From Patescibacteria group bacterium (GTDB lineage: Bacteria > Patescibacteriota > JABMPQ01 > JAQVVF01): 64,000 nucleotides of DNA. The position numbers and the translations under genes were made by a program. Below are positions 2,652 through 53,622 of this stretch, piece after piece (the first letter of the stretch is position 1; each line of letters begins with the position of its first letter). The DNA lies in assembly GCA_041662665.1 (NCBI GenBank), contig JBAZSC010000001.1, positions 321,511 to 385,510 of the forward strand, in the 5' to 3' direction. The notes below the pieces were generated by a model. It did no database searches, was not told the DNA's origin, and saw nothing but the letters and a program-made list of their open reading frames with translations.

Positions 2652-5393
2652 TTATTGTGCTACTTTACTGAAATCAGCGCTATTTAGGAATTCCTTTTTT
2701 ATTTCTTGAATTGATTTTTCAGTGCTATCCCAGTAGTTAACTCCGCCAACATCCGCTGCTCTAGCGTACAAAGTTTCATATAATTCTACAATTGCAGCTT
2801 TGCGGCCACTACTTTTTTCTATAGAAGCCAATCTATCATTATATTCTTTACTCGTCGCCAGTTTTTGTCTCATTTCTTTTGCATTTGATAATTTTGTCAA
2901 TGAAGCAATTCCAGTTTGGTCACCGCCACGTTTTAACACAATTTCATATGCAAGATTAGCTTGGGCTTTTTTCTGCTCATCTGCAGGCATTGCCGAAATA
3001 TTTCCAACTGATTCAGGGCTTACTGATATTGCAAATTTTGCGCCTACTATATCAATCTTATTATCATCATCTCTTTCAACTTGCTTTAGCCAATAATCAA
3101 CGCCATTCGGATCAGAAATTTTATCTAAATTATCAGCATAGATTCTATCATGTATTTTTCGATACAGCATTTCTATCGTTTTTTTATTGCCAATCTTTTT
3201 TTCAGTTGCTTGAATACGTTTGTCAAATTCTCCAAATTTTCTGTCATTTAGCAATGTAAACTGTACTCCTTTAAGACTTAATGGCTCTTGTCCTTCTGGT
3301 TTATAGAAAAAGCTTGGACCGCCAGCTCTTAAAGAGTTATCTGGTTGTTCATATTTTTCCAATTCAAAAGTATCGCCCAAAACTAAATTATAATAATAGA
3401 GAATAGTTTGAAATCTGTTTAAAGTTTTGAATTCTGAAGAATTTGAGGATTTATCGCCAAAACTTACTTGAAAATAATATGGTTTTCTACCATTTACAAA
3501 TCCGGCATCATTTTTATCTGACAATTGACCGCCTTGTAGATTTTCTAAAACGACATAATAAAGATCTTTTGTTTTATCATAATGCGTTTGTGCAGTTGTT
3601 TGATTTTCAAGAATAACAAAGCCATTAGCATCAGTTTGAATATTTTTTGGATCAACTGTTCCGTATGTAAATATTAAATCCTGATTTTTATAACTATCAT
3701 TGCCAACTTTCCATGTAATGATCTCACGATTTTCATTTCTTGGGATTACAGTTGGATTTACCATTAGAGCAGGTTCATTTCCATTATTTAAAACCGCCTC
3801 GCATTTATCATTTACCAAAACTTGACCTTCAGGACAATTGCCTTGAACTGATGTGCATTCTTCTGTACATCCATTTCGAGTCGTTCCAATAGGACAAACA
3901 AAATTATCCAAGCATACATTTCCTCCGTCATCTGGCGGTATAGGAGCTGTGCATTCTCCATTAACTATTTCTTGACCTTCTTCGCATTGTGTTGCGATAT
4001 TTGCGACAAATTTAATGGAAGTTAAAACTAAATGTGATGGCATTGTCACAACAACTGCAGAATTTACTTGTGTTGGTGGCATGCCTGGAACATCGCCCAA
4101 AGCGCCAACACAAGTATATAATTTTTGATAATTAGTAATTCCCGGATTTTTGGAGAAAAATTCTCCCATTAAGTAATCATTAAAATATTTAATTGGTTCT
4201 TTTAAGTGTTGTCCGGCAATACAAGTGGGCGCATCAACATTAATATCGGCATTGCCTTCAACTGGCAAATAGATCGGAGAAGTTCCACCCTGTCCTTCCA
4301 AAAGCCCAAAGTTATTACTGCCAAAATTATATCTTTGATTATAAACTTGCATAAAAGGACCGCTTCCATCTTTAGAATATTTATAAATTACAGCATATTG
4401 TAATTTTTTTCCTTGAGCATTTTGAGGCACATCATAAGCAAAATGATCTATATTATTTTGCATCGGAATCAACGGAATTCTCACCCATGTATTACCTTCA
4501 TTAAAGCTTACTAAAAATTTAATATTCTCAAAGAATGTCTTTTGATTGCTCGATGGGCTATAAGCAATGTCTCCTGTAACATTTCCAAAATTATTACTTG
4601 TATTTGCTAAATTATCTGAGAAAAAAAGACCATCAGTAAATTCTTTTTTAAAAGTACTATCAAAAAATGGTTGAACAGTACCAACGTTAGCATTTGAAAC
4701 ATTATTGAAAGTATAATCAGCCGGTTTGCCCTCATCTACTGTTAAAGCAATTTTATTGCTTACAATTCCGCAGATGCCAACTTGAATTTCAGAAGATCCT
4801 TGACCTATAGGCATTACTGTTCCATTGTTATAAACAAATAAAGCATCAGGATTATTTGATGACCATCTCAATAAATCGCTCCAGGCAACTGTGTCAAAAT
4901 TTACAAAATAATTTTTAAGATCAATATCTTGTATTGTTGAAGTATTTGCATCAATATCTTGAGAATTAATTTTTATCTTTACGAATTTATCAAGGCTTGG
5001 TTCATTTATTGAATTAGAATCAATTGCGGTCTGATTATTTGCAGTGCTAATTTCGATAGAAGATATTTTTTGTTTTAATTCATTAGGACAAAGATAGCCA
5101 ATTTTATCAGGACTCAAATCTCTATCAAAACTTGATTTATTGCTGTATATCGATAAATTTTTTTGAGCGAAACCTGCTTGAGGATTTAATTTTACATCAT
5201 CCTTCAAAACCAAATGTTCAGAATTAGAAAAATCTTCATCTACAGTTATTGACTGATCTAAAACTACTGCAGCAAAATACCAAATAGTAGTTCCAATTCC
5301 AACAGCAACTAGAATTGCTAAAACGATACCAGTTACAGTTCTGACTTTGCTGCTTGATGTCGTTTTTGTTATTGTTTTCTTTTGATTATTCAT
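2652..5393 (-). CDS. large cell-surface protein: N-terminal TM anchor, Cys-rich EGF-like linker, C-terminal DUF4214-like repeats
   Basis: 913 aa. N-terminal hydrophobic helix, a Cys-rich stretch (CEEGQEIVNGECTAP...CPEGQVLVNDKCEAV), and C-terminal repeats with the YxxxLxRxxDxxGxxYW motif (ELYETLYARAADVGGVNYWDS). It is a paralog of the next two genes. Confidence 0.8.
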   Translation of the reverse strand: MNNQKKTITKTTSSSKVRTVTGIVLAILVAVGIGTTIWYFAAVVLDQSITVDEDFSNSEHLVLKDDVKLNPQAGFAQKNLSIYSNKSSFDRDLSPDKIGYLCPNELKQKISSIEISTANNQTAIDSNSINEPSLDKFVKIKINSQDIDANTSTIQDIDLKNYFVNFDTVAWSDLLRWSSNNPDALFVYNNGTVMPIGQGSSEIQVGICGIVSNKIALTVDEGKPADYTFNNVSNANVGTVQPFFDSTFKKEFTDGLFFSDNLANTSNNFGNVTGDIAYSPSSNQKTFFENIKFLVSFNEGNTWVRIPLIPMQNNIDHFAYDVPQNAQGKKLQYAVIYKYSKDGSGPFMQVYNQRYNFGSNNFGLLEGQGGTSPIYLPVEGNADINVDAPTCIAGQHLKEPIKYFNDYLMGEFFSKNPGITNYQKLYTCVGALGDVPGMPPTQVNSAVVVTMPSHLVLTSIKFVANIATQCEEGQEIVNGECTAPIPPDDGGNVCLDNFVCPIGTTRNGCTEECTSVQGNCPEGQVLVNDKCEAVLNNGNEPALMVNPTVIPRNENREIITWKVGNDSYKNQDLIFTYGTVDPKNIQTDANGFVILENQTTAQTHYDKTKDLYYVVLENLQGGQLSDKNDAGFVNGRKPYYFQVSFGDKSSNSSEFKTLNRFQTILYYYNLVLGDTFELEKYEQPDNSLRAGGPSFFYKPEGQEPLSLKGVQFTLLNDRKFGEFDKRIQATEKKIGNKKTIEMLYRKIHDRIYADNLDKISDPNGVDYWLKQVERDDDNKIDIVGAKFAISVSPESVGNISAMPADEQKKAQANLAYEIVLKRGGDQTGIASLTKLSNAKEMRQKLATSKEYNDRLASIEKSSGRKAAIVELYETLYARAADVGGVNYWDSTEKSIQEIKKEFLNSADFSKVAQ

Positions 5394-5541: not shown

Positions 5542-8500
5542 CTATTCAGAAGCTGCAGTTCTAAATTCATCGCTATTTAGGAATTCTGCTTTGATCTCTG
5601 GTATCGATTGTCCTGTACTATCCCAGTAATCAACACCTGCTTTATCAGCTGGTCTTGCATAAATTGTCTCATATAATTCTGTAATTGCGCCTTTTTTGCC
5701 AGATGCTTTTTCAATATCTATTAATCTCTGATTATATTCCTGGCTATTAAACAGATTTTCTCTCATTCCTAGTTGGCTATCAAATGTATCCATTAAGTAT
5801 TTCACGCCATTTTTATCACCAGCGCGTTTTAGTACAACTATATAGGCAAATTCTGCTTGAGCTTCATTTTCACTAGCTGCCATTTCTGCTAATTGATCTC
5901 GATATTCATTACTTACAGAAATTCCGTATTTAACTGCTGATTTGTTCAAGCGATCTGCTTCAGCAATATCAGTCATTTGACTTAGCCAGAAATCAGCTCC
6001 TTCACCAGCAAACTTGTATAAATTATCATCGTAGATTCTATCCAAAATCTTTTTATACAACCAAGTCACCAAATTCATATTTTTCTTTTTCTTGTCCAAT
6101 GTTTCATCAAAGACTTTGAATTTGCGGTCATTGATCATTGCAAATCTGATGCCAGGCAAGCTTAGATTTGTATCGTACCAGAATTTTACGCCGCCATTTT
6201 GTTCTTTATTCCAGTCATAATCTTTAGTCAAATCATAATTTCTGTCAAAGATCCAATTGTAATAGTAGAGGACTGTTCTCATGCGATTTAGCGTTTTGAA
6301 GCTTGCTAGAGTAGTTGTTTTGTTGCTATCAACATACAAGCCCTTATCTCCAACCATGAAGCGATAATAATATTTCATTCTTCCATCAGTAAAGCCATTA
6401 TCATTGAATCCTTGCTTTTCTCCACCTTCCAATTTTCTTAATACCACATAATATTGATTAGCTTTATCATCATATCTTACTTCTGCTTCTTTGTTTAAAT
6501 TATTCTTATCAGTTCCATATTTGAATGTTAAAGTCTTAGCGTCAAAAGCAGTTTTAACTTCATTTTTTGAATTATCATCATTGCCTAAAATTTTCACAAT
6601 TACGCGATCACTGCCTCTGAAAATATTAGTTGCAGTTACAGAAACATTTGGCAATCCTTGCATTCCAGTTGTATCTGTTTCAATGTCGCTCGGATTCTGT
6701 GTGCCTGGATCAACTTGATCACCAACATTTTCTCCATCACTAGTAGATTCAGCAACATTGATTTGAATAGTATTTGAACTGATAGGTGAATTACCAAGAA
6801 AAGTCAATTTTGCATTATAAACACCTGGATTTTCATATGTATGTTTTGGAGATTTCAGATTTGTGAAACTAGCTGATCCTTGCTGATCTCCAAACACCCA
6901 TCCGTAAGAAGCTGAGTTAATGCTACCTTCTTTAATACCAAATTGAACTTCGCAAGGCGCTTTATCGCATGATGTAGGGGTTGCTGTAATCGTCGCTGCT
7001 TGTCCTACTGGAGTTGGCGTTGTTGCTGTCGCTGAAGTTGTAGCTACCTTAAATTTTAAATTAGTTAAAATCAAATCAGAAGGTAACGTTACTACTGCAA
7101 TCGATCTTAACTCAAAATCACCACCAGCGATATAGTTTTCTTTTTGATAGTTTGAAATACCTGGTTCTTTAGAAGCAAAAGGGCTCATTAAAAAATCATC
7201 ATAAAGTTCTGCATTATAAGCATGTCTGGCTAATTCTTGATCAGTAATACGCGTATAGTCATTTTGAAACTCAATATTTGAAGAAACATTATTCTGATTC
7301 AAAAACAAAACTTTATTTTGAGCAAGACCATCTGTATTATTGCCTGGTGTATAAAATATCCCTTTTACTTCTTCTCCTCCAAGAAGTGGTTTACTTTTTA
7401 CAACATTAGGAAGACTCTTGGAAATATCCTTATTATATTGATATGCCACAGCCCATTTCAATTTTTTACTTTTTAGTAAGCTGTCGTCTGGAACATTATA
7501 AGAAAATGAAAAACCATCTGTCGTTTTTGTGTTAGAAATTGGCACAAAATTCCAAGACTCTCCATCGTCAAAACTAAAATATAGTTGGACTTGTGATTTT
7601 ATTACTTGATCATCATTATATTTCAAGAAACCTTCTACATTTTTTATTACATTATTTTCATTTTTTATTTTTCCTGCAAGAGTATTTATTATATTATCAG
7701 AACTAATGCTTCCTGAAATTTCACCAATGTAATCTTTTGATGTAACTAATCTATTAGTATATTTATTAGCAAAAAAACTTTTTGTTGTGCCAATTCCAGC
7801 TGTTGTAGTATTATCAAAAGTATATTTCTCAGTTGGTTGAGAAACATTTTGCCCTGGATTAACATCAATGACAATATTCAATACATCCGTGTTTGATTTA
7901 TCGCACAAATTCATAAAAACACCAGCAGCACCTGGCATAACTGGCCATACAGATCCATTATTTTGTACGATTAATTTGGTTGGATCTGTTACCCATCGTA
8001 CTAAATCTGATAATTTTACATCAGGTTTATTCTTAATTAGTGTTTTTAAATCTATATTTGATCCTTTTAAATTAAAAGTACTTGAATTCAAATCAACATT
8101 GTTGCCATTAATTTTCAGCTTTATGAAATTTTCGAATTTTGTTGCGTTATTAGATAAATCACTAGTATTTATATGATAATAATTTTGATAATCCGGATCA
8201 CTTGAATGCTGTAAGGCTTCACTATCAACATAAAGTTCTACTGTATCTATTGCATCCTTTAACTGTTTCGGACAAATATTATTTTGTTCTCTATTCGAAA
8301 AACTTTTATCCGTACTTGGTAGAATTAATTTATCATCTCTGTCGCTACTATCTCGAATATTTAATGCTTCTTTTTTCAGATTCATATGATCTACTTTTCC
8401 AAAACTTTCATTTATGTATTCAGATGAAAATGTTGGCGCGACCGCAAAATTCCAAATCGCAAAACCAATTCCAGCTAAAGCTGCTACTCCCGCGACAATA

Positions 8501-45042: not shown

Positions 45043-45678
45043 ATGTTTACATTGCAAACTTTAATTCCCGAAATAATTATTATTCTAGCCCTCGCTGGAA
45101 TTATTATGATTGCTGCAAAAAAATTTCCAGAAGTAGCGAAAATTAAAGTTGAGAATAAAAATAAAGAAAAATCATTATTTCAAAAAGCGGGCAAGTCAAT
45201 AATTGATTTTTCAGTAAGTGTAGCAAAAGCAGTTTTTGCTAGAATCGCTAATCTAAAAAATCTTAAAGATAAAATTAAAAAAGAAGAAAAAAAGGATGTT
45301 GATAATATCAGTAGACCAAGGCAAGAATTAAGAAAATTAATTCTCAATCGTCCAAAATCAAAACCGAAAGTTTTGCCAATTGCAAAAACGGAAACAAAAT
45401 CTCCAATCAGTTTGCGTGCAAAAGCTGAGCTTTTGACTGGAAAAAAAGAATACAAAGAAGCAGAAAAAGTTTATTTAGAATTAATTAAAAAAGATCCAAG
45501 AGATATAGTTGCATATAAAGGTTTAGGAAAAATATATTTTATTCAACAGATTTTAAGCGATGCGCAATCAGCTTATGAGCAAGCCGTAAAATTAAATCCA
45601 GATGATTTGGAATCTCAGACTGAAATTTACAAAATCAGAAATTTAAAAAAGGATTTGTCAATTAGAGGAAGGAAATAA
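45043..45678 (+). CDS. membrane-anchored TPR-repeat protein
   Basis: N-terminal TM helix; C-terminal TPR (AYKGLGKIYF...AQSAYEQAVKLNP). Confidence 0.6.
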   Translation: MFTLQTLIPEIIIILALAGIIMIAAKKFPEVAKIKVENKNKEKSLFQKAGKSIIDFSVSVAKAVFARIANLKNLKDKIKKEEKKDVDNISRPRQELRKLILNRPKSKPKVLPIAKTETKSPISLRAKAELLTGKKEYKEAEKVYLELIKKDPRDIVAYKGLGKIYFIQQILSDAQSAYEQAVKLNPDDLESQTEIYKIRNLKKDLSIRGRK

Positions 45679-45788
45679 AATTTCATTCTGTCATCGCTGG
45701 TTAAATTTGTTGGTGTCAACAAATTTAACCAGCGAAGGATCCCATGATTTATTGCTGATTAATGGAATAATTGCGTAAACTTTTAACG

Positions 45789-45971
45789 GGCCGTTGTAGC
45801 TCAGTCGGCAGACCTGCCCGCCATCGCCCGAGCCATTGTAGCTCAGTTGGTAGAGCAATTCCATGGTAAGGAGTAGGTCACCGGTTCAATTCCGGTCAAT
45901 GGCTCAGGCGAGGGCAGGCGGGGTAATTCCATGGTAAGGAGTAGGTCGGCGGTTCGATTCCGCCCAACGGC
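45789..45971 (+). tRNA. tRNA-Thr(GGT) interrupted in the D-arm by a ~109-nt insertion that carries a second complete tRNA-Thr(GGT)
   Basis: Outer acceptor GCCGTTG/CAACGGC; anticodon arm ATTCC-ATGGTAA-GGAGT; T-arm GGCGG-TTCGATT-CCGCC. The D-arm is broken after GGCAGA by CCTGCCCGCC...GGCGAGGGCAGGCGGG. Confidence 0.5.
45831..45903 (+). tRNA. tRNA-Thr(GGT), complete cloverleaf nested inside the outer tRNA
   Basis: Acceptor GCCATTG/CAATGGC, D-arm TAGCTCAGTTGGTAGAGC, anticodon loop ATGGTAA, T-arm ACCGG-TTCAATT-CCGGT. Confidence 0.7.
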
Positions 45972-46056
45972 TTTGCCCACCGAAGTTTTGCAAAGCAAAA
46001 CGAAGGAGGGCTTTGTCTTGATATTTTTTTAAAAAAAGATTAAAATATTAACAATT

Positions 46057-46139
46057 GGGTAGGTACCAAAGCGGTCAAATGGATCAGGCTGTAAACCTGA
46101 TGCCCTCGGGCTTCGCAGGTTCGAACCCTGCCCTACCCA
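46057..46139 (+). tRNA. tRNA-Tyr(GTA)
   Basis: Acceptor GGGTAGG/CCTACCC, anticodon loop CTGTAAA, long variable arm. Confidence 0.8.
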
Positions 46140-46155
46140 AACGTGAATTTAAATC

Positions 46156-46226
46156 GCCCTCTTAGTTCAGTGGCAGAACAGCAGTTTTGTAAACTGCATA
46201 TGTCAGTTCGATTCTGACAGAGGGCT
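46156..46226 (+). tRNA. tRNA-Thr(TGT)
   Basis: Acceptor GCCCTCT/AGAGGGC, anticodon loop TTTGTAA, T-arm GTCAG-TTCGATT-CTGAC. Confidence 0.75.
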
Positions 46227-46336
46227 TTCGAAAATTACAAATGTCAAATTCCAAATTCCAAACAAATTACAAATCACAATATACAAAATCTTTGTAATTT
46301 GTTTGGAATTTGTTATTTGTAATTTTATTTAATCTC

Positions 46337-47089
46337 ATGTCTCTTTTATCACAGGAGCTAATTAAATTAGGTCTATCTGACAAAGAAGCAAAAGTATATT
46401 TGGCTTCATTGGAATTAGGATATGACACAGTTTTAAATATTGCAAAAAAAGCAGGGATCAATCGACCAACTGCTTATTTTATTTTAGAGTCATTACAAAA
46501 AAAGGGGATTGTTACAACTTTTGAAAAAGATAAAAAAACTTATTTTGCATCCGAATCTCCTGACAAGTTAGTTACATTATTAAATCAGCAAAAAGAAGAT
46601 CTTAATCAAAAGCAAAAAGAATTTGAAAATATTTTGCCAGAATTTAAAGCTTTATTTAATTTGCCAACAGAAAAACCAACTGTCAGATTCTTTGAAGGCA
46701 GGCAAGGATTGTTATCAATGCGCGAGGATTTTTTGAAAACTACAGACAAAAAAATTGAGGCAATGTATTGTCTAGATGATCTTAACAAAGTTTTTACTCC
46801 TGAAGAAAATGCAAAGTTTACAGACAGAAGAGCTGAAAAAAATATTGAAACTTTCGCTATATATACTTCAATCAATGGTCCAACAAAAAGACCAAAGGCT
46901 CCAGGTGAAAGACGTTTTATTCCTTTCGATAAATTTCCTGTGACTGCTGATATTACAATATATAATAATAAAGTTGCCATTGCATCTTTGAAAGGAAAGC
47001 TATCAGGAGTAATTATTGAAAATAAAGAAATTGCTAATACAGTACGTTCACTATTTTATTTAGGTTGGGAATCAGCCAAAAAAGTATAA
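46337..47089 (+). CDS. TrmB-family HTH transcriptional regulator
   Basis: MSLLSQELIKLGLSDKEAKVYLASLELGYDTVLNIAKKAGINRPTAYFILESLQKKGIV winged-helix N-terminus. Confidence 0.7.
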   Translation: MSLLSQELIKLGLSDKEAKVYLASLELGYDTVLNIAKKAGINRPTAYFILESLQKKGIVTTFEKDKKTYFASESPDKLVTLLNQQKEDLNQKQKEFENILPEFKALFNLPTEKPTVRFFEGRQGLLSMREDFLKTTDKKIEAMYCLDDLNKVFTPEENAKFTDRRAEKNIETFAIYTSINGPTKRPKAPGERRFIPFDKFPVTADITIYNNKVAIASLKGKLSGVIIENKEIANTVRSLFYLGWESAKKV

Positions 47090-47098
47090 GAACATGCT

Positions 47099-47963
47099 AG
47101 AAACTCGGTTTTCTATTAATCAAAAAAATAAACTTATTGTAAGTAAAAACAAGGTATAAAAAATAATCATTTAATTAAGATAAAACCGAGTTTCGCGTGA
47201 ATTCAAAAATAGAAATGCGCAAAACAAATTTTACAAATGAATCATTTTATCATATCTACAATCGCGGTACTGAAAAACGCGATATTTTTTTGCAAAATTA
47301 TGATTATTTTCAATTTATTAAATTATTAAGAAAATATAAAAATAATTTAGTTGAAATAATCTGCTATTGCTTAATGCCGAATCATTTTCATTTATTGCTA
47401 AAACAATTAAATAATAATGGAATCAGCAAGTTCATGCATTTATTAACAATAAGTTATGCAAAATATTTTAACAAAAAATATGATCATAGCGGAGTTTTAT
47501 TTCAGGGAAAATTTAAAGATGTCCAGATTTTGAGCTATATTCAATTGCTAAATATTTCAAAATACATCCATATAAATCCAGCTAAAGATCAGAATATTTT
47601 ATTAAAACAAAAAATAATTACATTAGAAAATTATCCTTGGTCTTCTTATAAAGATTATATAAATATCAGAAACGGAACATTATGTAATAAAACCGAAATA
47701 ATAAATTGTGTAGAAGGTAATTTTGTAAAAGAGTATAAAGAATTAATAAAGGCACATTTGATGAATTATAATGAGAGAAATTTGGATAAATTAATACTTG
47801 AATGAGTGAAATAGAAACTCGGTTTTCTATTAATCAAAAAAATAAACTTAATGTAAGTAAGAACAAGGTATGAAAAATAATCATTTAATTAAGATAAAAC
47901 CGAGTTTCATCATGTTGTAAATAATTGACACACGAAACTCGGTTTCTTCGGAAACCGAGTTTC
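47099..47963 (+). mobile_element. IS200/RAYT-like element: Y1 transposase gene flanked by 97-bp direct repeats plus a terminal REP-like hairpin
   Basis: Copies at 47099-47194 and 47813-47908 share 94 of 97 bases. Each carries GAAACTCGGTTTT ... AAAACCGAGTTTC. An extra perfect hairpin GAAACTCGGTTTC-ttcg-GAAACCGAGTTTC lies at 47934-47963. Confidence 0.65.
47197..47805 (+). CDS. tnpA: IS200-like / REP-associated tyrosine (Y1, HUH) transposase
   Basis: FYHIYNRGTEKRDIF, HUH motif CLMPNHFHLLL, and catalytic-Tyr region YIHINP. The start is GTG at 47197 or ATG at 47215. Confidence 0.8.
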   Translation: MNSKIEMRKTNFTNESFYHIYNRGTEKRDIFLQNYDYFQFIKLLRKYKNNLVEIICYCLMPNHFHLLLKQLNNNGISKFMHLLTISYAKYFNKKYDHSGVLFQGKFKDVQILSYIQLLNISKYIHINPAKDQNILLKQKIITLENYPWSSYKDYINIRNGTLCNKTEIINCVEGNFVKEYKELIKAHLMNYNERNLDKLILE

Positions 47964-50814: not shown

Positions 50815-51247
50815 ATGACTGCATTTTAACCTCTGTATGTTTCCAGTTTTTATCAAGTTTTTAATGAATAATTTGCAATAGTTTGAAAATTAATTCATTG
50901 AAAATTTAATAAAAATTAATAATTAGAAATTAAAAATTCGCTGTCAGCCTTTTGCCTCAAATCATTTGGAGACAAAAGATTGATAGCCTGTCCCGTACTA
51001 TGTTTCTGGTGAATATAAAAAAACATTGATTACTTTAGGAATTTAATCAATGCAACAAACAATATTTATTAGATACTTAGTATGGGATTAATGCTAGAAC
51101 ACTGACAACTTGGAAGGTAAAAATAATAGTCAAAAGTGTTAACTGTTAAGTGTTAATGGTTAACTGTTTGAAGTTGGCACATCGCGGCCAGGCAAGGCCG
51201 CGTTCGCGCGCGAGTAGATTCCGCTTGTGTCAGAGGAGGAGAGCGAC

Positions 51248-53515
51248 ATGTCGACCAACTGCGAGCCGAAGAGCGTCAGCACCGTCAACACCGTCACCGA
51301 GGAGAAGGAGGTGAAGCCCGCCCGGGTGCGCAAGCCCCGGGTGAAGGTCGAGAAGGAAGAGCAGGAGCAGTTCAACGAGGATGGCACGAAGAAGGATGTG
51401 AAGGACGAGGCCCCGCCCAAGAAGCGGAGCCACCACAAGAAGGTCGAGAAGTCCGTCGCCGTCGAGACCGAGACCGCCGAGCCCGCCCCGCCCGCCGAGT
51501 CCACCCCCAAGGTGGCGTCGGTGGCGGTGGTCGAGCAGCCGGTCCAGGTCGCCCCGCCCGCCGCGCCCCAGCCCGAGCCCCCCAAGAAGGGCGAGGTCGA
51601 GGACGTCAACGAGGACGAGGACAAGGACGGCGAGAGCGAGGGTGAGGACGAGGAGCAGGAGACCAGCGAGGAGGCGCTGGAGGACGCCCAGATCAACGAC
51701 CTGGAGTTCCAGAAGAAGATGAGCGAGCTCCCCCGGCACGAGCAGATCCGGCGGCAGAAGGCCCGCAACCGGGTCATCACGAGCAACCGGCGCAGCCGCA
51801 AGACGGCGGCGCAGGACAAGAACCGCGCGGAGCACAACGAGATGCGCGAGGCCGGGCGGCCGGAGGTGAAGATCACCATCCCGGACCCCCTGATCTGCAG
51901 CGCCCACGCCGGTGAAGTCCTGAAGCTCGAGGACGCCTACTCGCTGAACAGCAGCGTGGTCTACGAGCTGACCCAGGTGAGCCAGGAAGGCAAGACCGAG
52001 GCGCAGACCAAGATCCTGAAGTTCGTGGTGAGCAAGCTCGCTCCGCTGTTCCGGTTCAACTGCGAGACCATCCCGGCCTACTGCAAGACGGTGGTGGACG
52101 TGCTGGCGAAGAACATCGCGGCCGTCCAGCCCCTCATCGCGCACGAGAAGAAGGCGCGGTGGGAGAGCCGGATCGTCATGCCCTACGCGGCCGCGCTCCG
52201 GCACTTCGCCGAGAGCAAGGCCGCGGTCGAGGGCAAGCAGCAGAACGTCAAGGACCGGCAGAACAAGGAGGCGTGGGCCTGGTTCGACGAGAACATCGGC
52301 AAGTTTCACGCCGAGCTGGTCGGGCTGCGCAGCGTCGAGGAGATCGTCGGCAAGATCGACATCCTGAACGGCCTGAACGACAAGTGTCTCGACACCTTGC
52401 GCCACCACTTCCTCGAGACCCTGCCCGTGATGCGCTACAGCGAGCCCGGCAAGATGCTGGGTCAGCTGCTGCGCGAGCGGGGCAAGAAGTACGAGCAGGT
52501 GCAGATCGAGGAGCAGCGGGCCCGCAAGGCCGAGGCCGACGAGAAGCGCAGGAAGGAGGAAGAGAAGGCTCTGGCCGGGCTGGGCGAGCTCGAAGGGCTG
52601 TTCGGTGGCGAGGAGAAGCAGGGCGAGGAGCAGGACGAGGAGCCCAGCGAGCGTGACGAGAACGAGAAGCGGATCGGCAAGTGGCTGGAGAAGCTTGTCG
52701 GCGGGAAGATGCACAGCGCGGCCGGGCTGATGACGCCCAGCGCCCTGCGCGAGATCTTCGCCGCGGATCCGGGCGCCGAGGTCTACTCGGCCTGCCCGTT
52801 CAGCCAGCAGGCGCCGGGGACCCAGTACTCCACCTACGTGAACCGGAAGGGCGACAACGAGCCCCTCTTCGCGACGGTGACGGTCCCGACCCTCGTGGTC
52901 GAGACCGACGACGAGGGTCAACCGATCTGCGACGGCAAGGGGCGGCCCAAGCCGTGGATCAACCCCCGTACGAGCAAGACGCAGTACGAGGGGCAGATCG
53001 CGGTGCTGACGAAGCACGAGGCCCGCTGGGCCGCGTCGATCCGCATCCGCCAGATGGCCGAGGAGCAGGTGAACAACGGCCGGTACGACTCGCTGGAGGA
53101 GGCCATCAACGGCATCCATCAGGAAGTCAACCAGGCCAAGACCAACCTCTGGGCGGCCAAGAAGGAGTTCAACGAGGCCAAGGTCTCCGGCGACCAGAGC
53201 CGCATCGACGCGGCCGAGGAGCGCCTGAACCAGGCCAAGGAGGTCATGAACCATCTGAGCGACGACCGTCGTCCGTGGTACCAGGGGATGCTCGAGGGAA
53301 GCCTCGGTGTCCTCAAGTACTACGATCTCAAGAACACGGTCGAGATGCTCAACAAGCCCCGTGAAGAGCGGCCCGCCAAGCGCAACACGCGCGGCGGCGG
53401 GACCCACGGCAACTACGAGCAGGAGCAGTCCCAGGGCGCGAGCGCGGAAGAGCAGGAGGCCTTCTTCCGCAGCCAGAACAACCAGAGCTTCGCCAACAAG
53501 GCCCGCCAGGTCTGA
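51248..53515 (+). CDS. large hypothetical protein (755 aa) with K/E/P/A-rich disordered N-terminus and coiled-coil segments, encoded by a ~65% GC, GC3-saturated gene
   Basis: ATG at 51248, 6 nt after GAGGAGGAG. Codons are almost exclusively NNC/NNG. The antisense 785-aa ORF (51230-53587) is a GC artefact (L/G/R/A-rich). Confidence 0.6.
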   Translation: MSTNCEPKSVSTVNTVTEEKEVKPARVRKPRVKVEKEEQEQFNEDGTKKDVKDEAPPKKRSHHKKVEKSVAVETETAEPAPPAESTPKVASVAVVEQPVQVAPPAAPQPEPPKKGEVEDVNEDEDKDGESEGEDEEQETSEEALEDAQINDLEFQKKMSELPRHEQIRRQKARNRVITSNRRSRKTAAQDKNRAEHNEMREAGRPEVKITIPDPLICSAHAGEVLKLEDAYSLNSSVVYELTQVSQEGKTEAQTKILKFVVSKLAPLFRFNCETIPAYCKTVVDVLAKNIAAVQPLIAHEKKARWESRIVMPYAAALRHFAESKAAVEGKQQNVKDRQNKEAWAWFDENIGKFHAELVGLRSVEEIVGKIDILNGLNDKCLDTLRHHFLETLPVMRYSEPGKMLGQLLRERGKKYEQVQIEEQRARKAEADEKRRKEEEKALAGLGELEGLFGGEEKQGEEQDEEPSERDENEKRIGKWLEKLVGGKMHSAAGLMTPSALREIFAADPGAEVYSACPFSQQAPGTQYSTYVNRKGDNEPLFATVTVPTLVVETDDEGQPICDGKGRPKPWINPRTSKTQYEGQIAVLTKHEARWAASIRIRQMAEEQVNNGRYDSLEEAINGIHQEVNQAKTNLWAAKKEFNEAKVSGDQSRIDAAEERLNQAKEVMNHLSDDRRPWYQGMLEGSLGVLKYYDLKNTVEMLNKPREERPAKRNTRGGGTHGNYEQEQSQGASAEEQEAFFRSQNNQSFANKARQV

Positions 53516-53622
53516 ACCTTCCAACAACCCGCCCCCGGGACAAGTCCAAGCTTTAAGCTTGTAACCTTGCTCCCTGGCGCGCGGCACACTACCATTCCAG
53601 TTCTTTCATTCCCGTTCCTTCA

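Follow-up and report, generated by a model that had tools for sequence, protein, structure and literature searches.

Selfish insertions can persist where the target is an essential RNA gene because they offset the damage that they cause. Introns do so by splicing, whereas integrative elements restore the 3' end of the tRNA: for this, the phages and integrative and conjugative elements (ICEs) that insert in tRNA genes carry a copy of the displaced 3' end. The archaeal tRNA introns and split tRNAs, for instance those of the Thermoproteales and of Nanoarchaeum, depend on a bulge-helix-bulge (two 3-nt bulges separated by a 4-bp helix) which is cut by EndA; we know of no protein-dependent tRNA splicing in bacteria. 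GC-rich palindromic elements are also mobile in AT-rich genomes, as exemplified by the yeast mitochondrial GC clusters, the fungal double-hairpin elements, the Rickettsia palindromic elements and the repetitive extragenic palindromic sequences (REP/REPIN). PMC4090602 and PMC4033280 are reviews of archaeal tRNA introns at non-canonical positions and of split tRNAs; group I introns located in the anticodon loops of bacterial tRNAs, in some cases with homing endonuclease genes, are the subject of PMC3984707, and SegB, a free-standing GIY-YIG homing endonuclease of the phage T4 tRNA gene cluster, that of PMC2330249. Here, we describe a tRNA-Thr(GGT) gene interrupted in its D-arm by a short cassette which itself contains a complete tRNA-Thr(GGT) gene, a 'nest' of tRNA genes. 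It was found in a 64,000-nt stretch of a Patescibacteria genome (contig JBAZSC010000001.1, hereafter the window, all positions being those of this stretch) and appears to belong to a widespread, recursive and undescribed family.

The outer gene is made of positions 45790-45812 and 45923-45972, the break falling between nt 23 and 24, in the 3' strand of the D-stem. The insert (45813-45922) is 110 nt long and consists of a 19-nt left arm, the complete tRNA-Thr(GGT) and an 18-nt right arm; it contains no protein coding sequence. The components are, in order:

45790..45812, + strand: 5' part (nt 1-23) of the outer, resident, tRNA-Thr(GGT), GCCGTTGTAGCTCAGTCGGCAGA, read from the sequence and laid out as GCCGTTG TA GCTC AGTCGGC AGA (acceptor 5' strand, D-stem 5' strand, D-loop, G22, A23)
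45813..45831, + strand: left arm of the cassette, CCTGCCCGCCATCGCCCGA = CCTGCCCGCC ATCGCC CGA, its first 10 nt being the family end motif
45832..45904, + strand: inner complete tRNA-Thr(GGT), 73 nt, discriminator U73, CCA not encoded (ARAGORN, Rfam RF00005)
45905..45922, + strand: right arm of the cassette, CAGGCGAGGGCAGGCGGG = CA GGCGA G GGCAGGCGGG, its last 10 nt being the shared end motif
45923..45972, + strand: 3' part (nt 24-73) of the outer tRNA-Thr(GGT), GTAATTCC...CAACGGCT, full sequence GTAATTCCATGGTAAGGAGTAGGTCGGCGGTTCGATTCCGCCCAACGGCT

The outer 3' part thus spans the end of the D-stem, the anticodon arm, the variable loop, the T arm, the acceptor 3' strand and the discriminator, and the joined halves read GGCAGA|GUAAUUCC across the 23|24 junction. 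On the raw sequence, ARAGORN and Rfam detected the inner gene only. It was called Thr(ggt) by the former and matched RF00005 over its full length with 67.9 bits, for a threshold of 29; as a full cloverleaf above the Rfam gathering threshold, it is predicted to be a functional tRNA. The intron options of ARAGORN did not lead to a call of the outer gene from the raw sequence, their sole product being a spurious 'tRNA-Gly with intron' under -io; once the outer halves were joined manually, ARAGORN called a tRNA-Thr(GGT). At permissive thresholds (E <= 10), Rfam gave no match except tRNA over 45500-46400 and in five related loci. The interruption of a tRNA-Thr(GGT) D-arm by an insert with a complete tRNA-Thr(GGT), as proposed in the initial annotation, is therefore confirmed by the sequence, by the calls and by the joining of the halves. 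Its coordinates (45789-45971) were one base low and its insert one nucleotide short (109 nt), the rest of the description being accurate; the two independent complete tRNAs that search tools might have called instead did not materialize, the inner gene alone being returned.

A repeat search found direct repeats between the outer and inner genes, one of 26 nt (85%) and one of 48 nt (88%), and a 26-nt inverted repeat, I1, which comprises the arms and the acceptor strands of the inner gene. In the fold of the 183-nt RNA, one cloverleaf encloses another (-85.4 kcal/mol, z = -6.3, none of 200 shuffles being as good), with the arms and both cloverleaves present in the minimum-energy structure. The left and right arms pair in RNA and DNA folds alike, as 6+3+5+2 bp with three 1x1 mismatches, and the helix is stacked on the inner acceptor stem. 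The duplex energies of own pairs and cross pairs of arms did not differ significantly (p = 0.11), which is evidence neither for nor against a structural constraint on the arm interior, since the arms are conserved in sequence. Compared base by base, the inner and outer genes differ at 11 of 73 positions, among which are a compensatory change in the acceptor stem (A4-T69 versus G4-C69) and two T-stem pairs: the inner gene is thus not a fresh copy of the outer one. A simple local duplication was rejected on these differences, and because the arms are shared with distant genomes; the 'nested duplication' put forward at first falls with it.

The window comes from a 31% GC genome with tsf, pyrH, a PSP1/RicT homologue and a class II tRNA-Tyr; homologues of its PSP1 protein are labelled Parcubacteria or Patescibacteria. 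The class II tRNA-Tyr and the tsf-pyrH-PSP1 order indicate that the host is a bacterium. Its nearest relatives, the contigs designated L117 and L115, were found by PSP1 protein similarity and display a conserved order: elongation factor Ts (EF-Ts), a UMP-kinase-like gene, PSP1, a TPR protein and a tRNA cluster, with TrmB further downstream in L115. In L117 (PSP1 92% identical), the tRNA-Thr(GGT) is uninterrupted (65.6 bits) and shares 72 of 73 positions with the joined outer halves, the sole difference being C25, which is a T in the window and gives there a G10-U25 pair. In L115 (PSP1 87% identical), the tRNA-Thr(GGT) is also uninterrupted and the gene order is kept; nt 1-23 of the outer gene are identical to those of both orthologues. 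The empty site in close relatives and the 72/73 match demonstrate that, relative to them, a discrete insertion occurred in the resident gene. No target-site duplication accompanied it: put together, the outer halves reproduce the layout of the L117 gene without an extra or a missing base.

Could the nest result from misassembly or from the mixing of strains? The window is probably metagenomic, and close strains can give chimeric joins. An independent Joint Genome Institute (JGI) metagenome contig, L157 (Ga0172379_10166637), is however identical to the window over the at least 200 bases compared, about 90 analogous loci exist in many assemblies made with different assemblers, and the GC-rich arms match neither tRNA variant. 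Given the L157 identity and the dozens of analogous loci, we consider the chance of an artefact practically negligible.

One feature of L117 is worth adding. Directly after its uninterrupted tRNA-Thr(GGT), at 3556-3622, lies a relic 3' tRNA-Thr fragment whose T loop holds two small GC hairpins, TTC|CCACCCTTTGGGTGG TCCCCCGAAGGGGGA|GATT; this fragment implies that the locus had an earlier history of replacement.

To delineate the family, genomes (one per species) were scanned for two D-arm 5' halves within 41 nt, and metagenomes were scanned with the left junction plus the arm end; both patterns required a TAGCTCAG-type D arm, and the second one also a CCYGCCCGC arm end. The genome scan gave 114 loci, and among the loci listed at least about a dozen share the architecture and the arm ends of the window: the ends CCTGCCCGCC ... 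GGCAGGCGGG are found directly after ..GGNAGA in metagenome-assembled genomes of Parcubacteria, Moraniibacteriota and other Patescibacteria. The metagenome scan, whose hits do not test the recurrence of the arm end since it is part of the query, gave at least 120 loci. After removal of chance matches in GC-rich coding DNA, at least about 90 were tRNA-holding insertions at 23/24, of which at least 55 are compact like that of the window, with a left arm of 13-22 nt. The right-arm end motif recurs in related loci. At the sequence level, these data establish a large and mostly Patescibacteria family with a common junction and common arm ends.

The cargo tRNAs are mostly Thr (GGT, CGT and TGT), the others being Val, Lys, Ala, Ile, Met and Phe, and the outer anticodon equals the inner one in all 27 readable cases (26 before a register error of the script was corrected). 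Several variations on the theme were encountered. Arm-only hairpins of 31-45 nt with the same ends sit at 23/24, at 35/36 and in the T loop at 56/57 of tRNA genes. Cassettes in the anticodon loop (L033, L083, L210) have their arms reverse-complemented, the tRNA being still in the direction of the host gene. A hairpin and a cassette stand in tandem in L175, L137 and L134, nests are two or three levels deep in L229, L009, L065 and L210, and the inner and outer genes of L205 are nearly identical. At other tRNA positions, nests are closed by unrelated arm families (L024, L102/L039, L104, L113, L097, L088).

The IMG/VR database yielded no D-arm nest, its other matches being chance hits in GC-rich DNA. 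Arm-only hairpins with the ends CCTGCCCGC...GGCAGGCGGG were seen on two viral-classed contigs, L243 (around 1610-1730) and L247 (around 6460-6580), in a repeated non-tRNA context, ..CTCTGTG..|hairpin|TCTGTGGGC... A phage origin was dropped for want of D-arm nests in IMG/VR, these two contigs being the only viral-classed ones with arm-only hairpins. A different kind of locus was represented by L004, L006, L021, L023 and about 30 similar Clostridia loci, in which repeated tRNA-Phe 5' fragments of about 44 nt lie upstream of a complete tRNA-Phe. There, a conserved CATCTAAAAAAA-type repeat follows and the arms are absent; these look like ordinary attachment-site duplications, distinct from the nests. 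In the literature searched, bacterial tRNA genes lying within other tRNA genes are not described, which does not in itself prove novelty.

How did the insert come to be there? We hold it fairly probable that it is a selfish, protein-less cassette that brought its own replacement tRNA-Thr(GGU) and landed between nt 23 and 24 of the resident gene. Among the three origins proposed in the initial annotation, the 'small element that targets tRNA genes' is thus the best supported, by the empty sites, the 90 or so recurrences, the presence of near-identical cassettes in different host tRNA genes and the nests within nests. The outer genes that hold cassettes with 88-99% identity can have acceptor stems with as many as seven of seven positions different. 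One cassette lineage, defined by the same arms and the same inner acceptor stem, is present in CGT, TGT and GGT genes with, each time, an anticodon arm matching that of the host gene: the cargo is therefore either mosaic or quickly converted by the host copy. The encoding of CCA by the inner gene disagrees with the habit of neighbouring tRNAs in 12 of 40 loci, the association with local habit being weak; this suggests that the cargo is foreign in at least some cases.

The cassette could be tolerated as follows. With only 19 nt upstream of the inner gene, and no promoter-like site found within the insert, transcription would be driven by the promoter of the resident gene and excision left to the enzymes that process tRNA ends. 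In the transcript, the arms would zip into an interrupted helix of about 16 bp stacked on the inner acceptor stem, so that the inner cloverleaf could form independently of the outer halves, which are nearly identical to it. The inner tRNA would then be freed by RNase P, 3'-end trimming and CCA addition; this presumed working copy would do the decoding, the outer halves being by-products, and the damage to an essential gene would be offset by the replacement tRNA.

Some of the same observations could be read differently, i.e. the nest would have been built in place, by insertion of a GC-rich palindromic mini-element (the arms) in whose loop a copy of the local tRNA-Thr was later captured, the hairpin being the mobile unit. 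Such a scheme would accommodate the arm-only hairpins, present at 23/24, 35/36 and 56/57 but also at a few intergenic sites and on the two viral-classed contigs, the orientation of the arms, which is either one relative to the tRNA (L033, L083, L210), the tandem hairpin and cassette pairs and the near identity of the two L205 genes. It is also in keeping with an inner anticodon arm common to the resident gene and an inner T stem common to the L115 relative. It requires, however, two rare events, the first of them lethal to an essential gene, and it fits poorly with near-identical arm-plus-tRNA units, having the same acceptor stem, in very different host genes, with the CCA discordance and with the nests within nests, which are simpler if the whole unit moves. 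On balance, construction in place seems unlikely.

As to how a replacement cassette would spread, a clue came from the genes near the nests. The recurrent neighbours are housekeeping genes and a small GIY-YIG nuclease of about 85 aa (PF01541) reduced to the catalytic domain, the only non-housekeeping gene to recur; no integrase or transposase family does. A complete tRNA directly follows 9 of the 11 GIY-YIG open reading frames (ORFs) found near nests, and a 5' fragment of the same tRNA precedes at least five of them. In L119 and L216, the GIY-YIG gene is inside the interrupted tRNA gene, the order being a 5' part interrupted at 23/24 by an arm-only hairpin, the stretch from nt 24 to about 37, the GIY-YIG gene and a complete cognate tRNA; in L119, relic 3' pieces additionally follow the complete tRNA. 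In every arm-only case at 23/24 that was read, there is a second breakpoint at about nt 31-38, followed by a complete tRNA. This two-site breakpoint signature and the SegB precedent lead us to favour, as the mobilization route, a homing-type gene conversion following a break made by a nuclease that cuts tRNA genes; we regard this route as possible, though short of probable. The window copy would then be a non-autonomous derivative of the nuclease-bearing nests.

At 7604-8180 of L119, a relative with a PSP1 75% identical, several insertions disrupt a tRNA-Thr(TGT): a compound GC hairpin at 23/24, a hairpin at 35/36, AT-rich and GC-rich hairpins in the T arm and, in the anticodon loop, the GIY-YIG gene with its complete tRNA-Thr(TGT), flanked by duplicated GCAGCTGTTTT. 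In L018, L228, L230, L237, L216 and L119, a small GIY-YIG gene separates a 5' fragment of a tRNA (Trp, Tyr, Phe or Thr) from a complete copy of that tRNA, and a relic 3' part holding a hairpin often follows. The nuclease gene and the replacement tRNA look like one cassette inserted in the anticodon loop.

Since tRNA genes are classic integration sites, the nest could also be a scar left by the integration and excision of a phage or island at the tRNA gene through an integrase. In line with this, the genome scan retrieved from Clostridia and Bacteroidales many repeats of the '5' fragment plus complete tRNA' type, which resemble attachment-site duplications, and, 5 kb further downstream, the window has an unusual GC-rich segment. 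The link to a genomic island made in the initial annotation nevertheless found no support: Pfam scans of four neighbouring ORFs revealed no integrase, no recombinase family recurs near related nests and no repeat of a tRNA 3' end is present. Instead of a large element bordered by directly repeated copies of one tRNA end, the locus shows nesting; its insert measures 110 nt in all and has family-wide arms, and the relatives have a clean empty site. We judge such a scar very unlikely.

The state of the outer genes was surveyed. Among 92 tRNA-holding insertions (automatic count), 50 have no detectable matching 3' part, about 26 outer genes are intact after manual review and about 7 contain extra small hairpins; these counts combine automatic classification and reading of the sequences and are approximate. 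Where the anticodon arm is readable, all outer stems are intact in 16 of 27 genes, the window included. Truncation, loss of the anticodon or a mismatch between the halves affects many outer genes. Wherever an arm-only interruption could be read far enough, a complete cognate tRNA goes with it, either nested or just downstream: among such loci, not one interrupted gene stands alone. The decay of the outer genes and the constancy of the cognate copy fit with an insertion that inactivates the outer gene and a cargo that takes over.

In several damaged outer genes, the anticodon and the 3' side of its loop are replaced by a recurrent module of about 24 nt, TCCGCC-AAA-GGCGGA-TAAACTCCA, in which (A)UAAACUCCA comes after a small GC hairpin. 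The module is conserved from one locus to the next and was seen in the outer 3' parts of L007, L029, L126, L128, L143, L193, L199, L208, L213 and L229.

Several findings weigh against the picture of a mobile replacement cassette, or against parts of it. First, all outer stems of the window copy are intact, and the fold of the precursor also forms the outer acceptor, anticodon and T arms. From the absence of the insertion in a relative with a PSP1 92% identical, we infer that the insertion is recent and the outer gene still intact for that reason; the inner gene would be the one at work and the outer gene a very young relic. Second, the inner anticodon arm is identical to the outer one, down to a T28-G42 pair that L115 and L117 also have: part of the cargo may be local, through gene conversion, instead of imported. 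Third, concerning homing, there is no ORF with a GIY-YIG motif in the 64-kb window, no recombinase or nuclease family other than GIY-YIG recurs near nests and, GIY-YIG genes being common in these genomes, their enrichment near nests is about two-fold with an assumed background copy number. Lastly, homing alone accounts neither for the conservation of the arm sequence, which extends to a fixed U-G and a fixed C-A mismatch, nor for the flipped arms at the anticodon-loop sites of L033, L083 and L210, nor for the few arm-only hairpins outside tRNA genes. Conserved arms, used in both orientations and present in non-tRNA copies, point to a putative enzyme that would recognize the hairpin. Long autonomous elements with the same ends were not found in the approximately 1.6 Mb fetched.

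The intactness of the outer halves in the window, and the way the outer acceptor, anticodon and T arms fold around the insert, would be expected if the insert was an intervening sequence at the RNA level. It would be excised, releasing the inner tRNA, and the outer halves would be ligated (e.g. by an RtcB-type enzyme) or serve as a two-piece tRNA, one transcript yielding two tRNA-Thr. The helix closing the insert is flush with the junction, as in bacterial rRNA intervening sequences; several unrelated arm families close nests elsewhere, which suggests that the closing stem is itself needed; and the small hairpin insertions in the outer genes of L150 and L230 can be removed on paper to give a perfect tRNA. 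The initial annotation had likewise envisaged an intron at a non-canonical position. Other aspects weaken the case. The bulge-helix-bulge-like structure then proposed as a check was looked for in the folds and by hand, in both arm registers, and is absent: the first and last bases of the insert pair (C-G), so that both junctions are directly opposed where the 6-bp helix starts, and the irregularities of the arm helix are 1x1 mismatches, not 3-nt bulges. No intron or ribozyme family of Rfam was matched, and an insert of 110 nt, 73 of them being tRNA, is too short for a group I or II intron, whose catalytic core exceeds about 200 nt. Many outer genes are truncated, devoid of anticodon or made of mismatched halves, interrupted genes never occur without a complete cognate copy, and the host, from its class II tRNA-Tyr and tsf/pyrH order, is bacterial. 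Excision at the RNA level thus appears improbable. More doubtful still is that both tRNAs mature from one transcript, which would make the insert a mobile, tRNA-encoding bacterial intron without bulge-helix-bulge or self-splicing. Were it true, Patescibacteria would have a pathway of tRNA cleavage and joining, or working two-piece tRNAs; a splicing of the outer genes would be, to our knowledge, the first protein-dependent tRNA splicing in bacteria.

Around the nest, three other features of the window were noted:

45975..46011, + strand: imperfect hairpin directly 3' of the outer gene and outside the cassette, GCCCACCGAAGTTTTGC AAA GCAAAACGAAGGAGGGC (inverted repeat I4)
47197-47805, + strand: IS200-like Y1_Tnp ORF (PF01797, E = 3e-10), 1.2 kb downstream, just after a TrmB-family gene
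51227-53515, + strand: 762-aa ORF, 63-70% GC, with a strong excess of A over T on the + strand

L115 has a different hairpin in place of the first feature and no gene called at the place corresponding to the second, and the Y1_Tnp type of family does not recur near other nests. The third feature lies in a sharply bounded GC-rich stretch (about 51200-53600) of this 31% GC genome. No Pfam family was found for the 762-aa ORF and its neighbour, and the 785-aa ORF on the opposite strand is taken to be spurious. This stretch might have a foreign origin, hold an unusual gene or result from a chimeric join; it lies 5 kb away and looks unrelated to the nest. Between 48800 and 50000, the GC content is 46-52%, the ORFs are all short, overlap and occupy several frames, and Rfam gave no match at the gathering threshold; this segment may encode a structured RNA or be the degraded remains of foreign DNA. 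Ahead of the tRNA cluster, the intergenic spacer (45688-45741 in the window, and its counterparts in L115 and L117) contains long palindromes, AT-rich or mixed, which are not the same in close relatives, for instance CCCGAACCAAGTTTCTG / CAGAAACTTGGTACGGGG upstream of the tRNA in L115 and L117: these spacers seem to turn over fast via palindromic repeats.

If our reading of the nests is correct, mobile DNA turns over tRNA genes in these small genomes. The family, which appears to be common in Patescibacteria and stacks several levels deep, would be a fossil record of successive replacements of tRNA genes. There is a practical side to this, as tRNA finders report the inner gene only and miss the relics; fragments and hairpins around tRNA genes are then at risk of being misread as introns, pseudogenes or attachment sites.

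How do the nests compare with known systems? Like the archaeal introns and split tRNAs, they involve interruptions outside position 37/38, D arm included, multiple interruptions, and GC-rich complements that join the halves. They differ in that the host is bacterial, that the junctions are flush at the base of the helix, and that the insert holds a complete cognate tRNA; the interrupted genes are, moreover, often decayed and an intact copy is always alongside. The group I introns of tRNA genes resemble the cassette in being selfish and in cancelling their own cost; homing is plausible for the cassette too, and introns nested in introns parallel the nested tRNAs. The cassette departs from them by its lack of a ribozyme core, by its replacement gene instead of self-splicing and by its site, 23/24 in the D stem.

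As regards homing systems, uninterrupted alleles exist in the relatives, and GIY-YIG genes occur in the related nests L119 and L216, none being present in the window cassette. SegB, whose gene stands among tRNA genes and carries its flanks along as it spreads, has a parallel in L119, L216, L228 and L237, where a small GIY-YIG gene separates a tRNA 5' fragment from a complete copy of that tRNA. The window copy differs in having no nuclease gene, the GIY-YIG proteins, of about 85 aa, are putative nucleases, and nesting and arms have no T4 counterpart. Like the phages and ICEs, the cassette carries what keeps the target tRNA functional; unlike them, it carries a whole tRNA, has no integrase, measures 110 nt, uses a D-stem site and leaves both old halves. 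Integrase insertion in the usual form is not recognizable here, four neighbouring ORFs being devoid of integrase by Pfam and the nested insert having no flanking direct repeat.

Transposon-like systems offer other partial matches. The terminal inverted ends recall the miniature inverted-repeat elements (MITEs) of DDE transposases; the target-site duplication is absent. For IS200/IS605 or REP with its transposase RAYT, we found no shared flank and no hairpin within each arm, the left one pairing with the right one: the 5' flanks of the insertions vary (..AGA, ..TTGG, ..TTTG, ..TCGCA and, on the other strand, ..TTTA). With the GC-rich palindromes of AT-rich genomes, the cassette shares short GC-rich inverted repeats in a 31% GC genome, conserved or RNA-gene targets and the existence of arm-only copies. 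It differs from them since its arms hold in their loop a gene predicted to be functional, and since it is, in the sequence examined, nearly confined to set positions of tRNA genes. To conclude, the cassette works like the cost-neutral selfish insertions of tRNA genes but displays none of the features that define them. It seems to represent a third way of cancelling the cost of insertion, in which a whole replacement gene is brought in and the old one is left as a shell.

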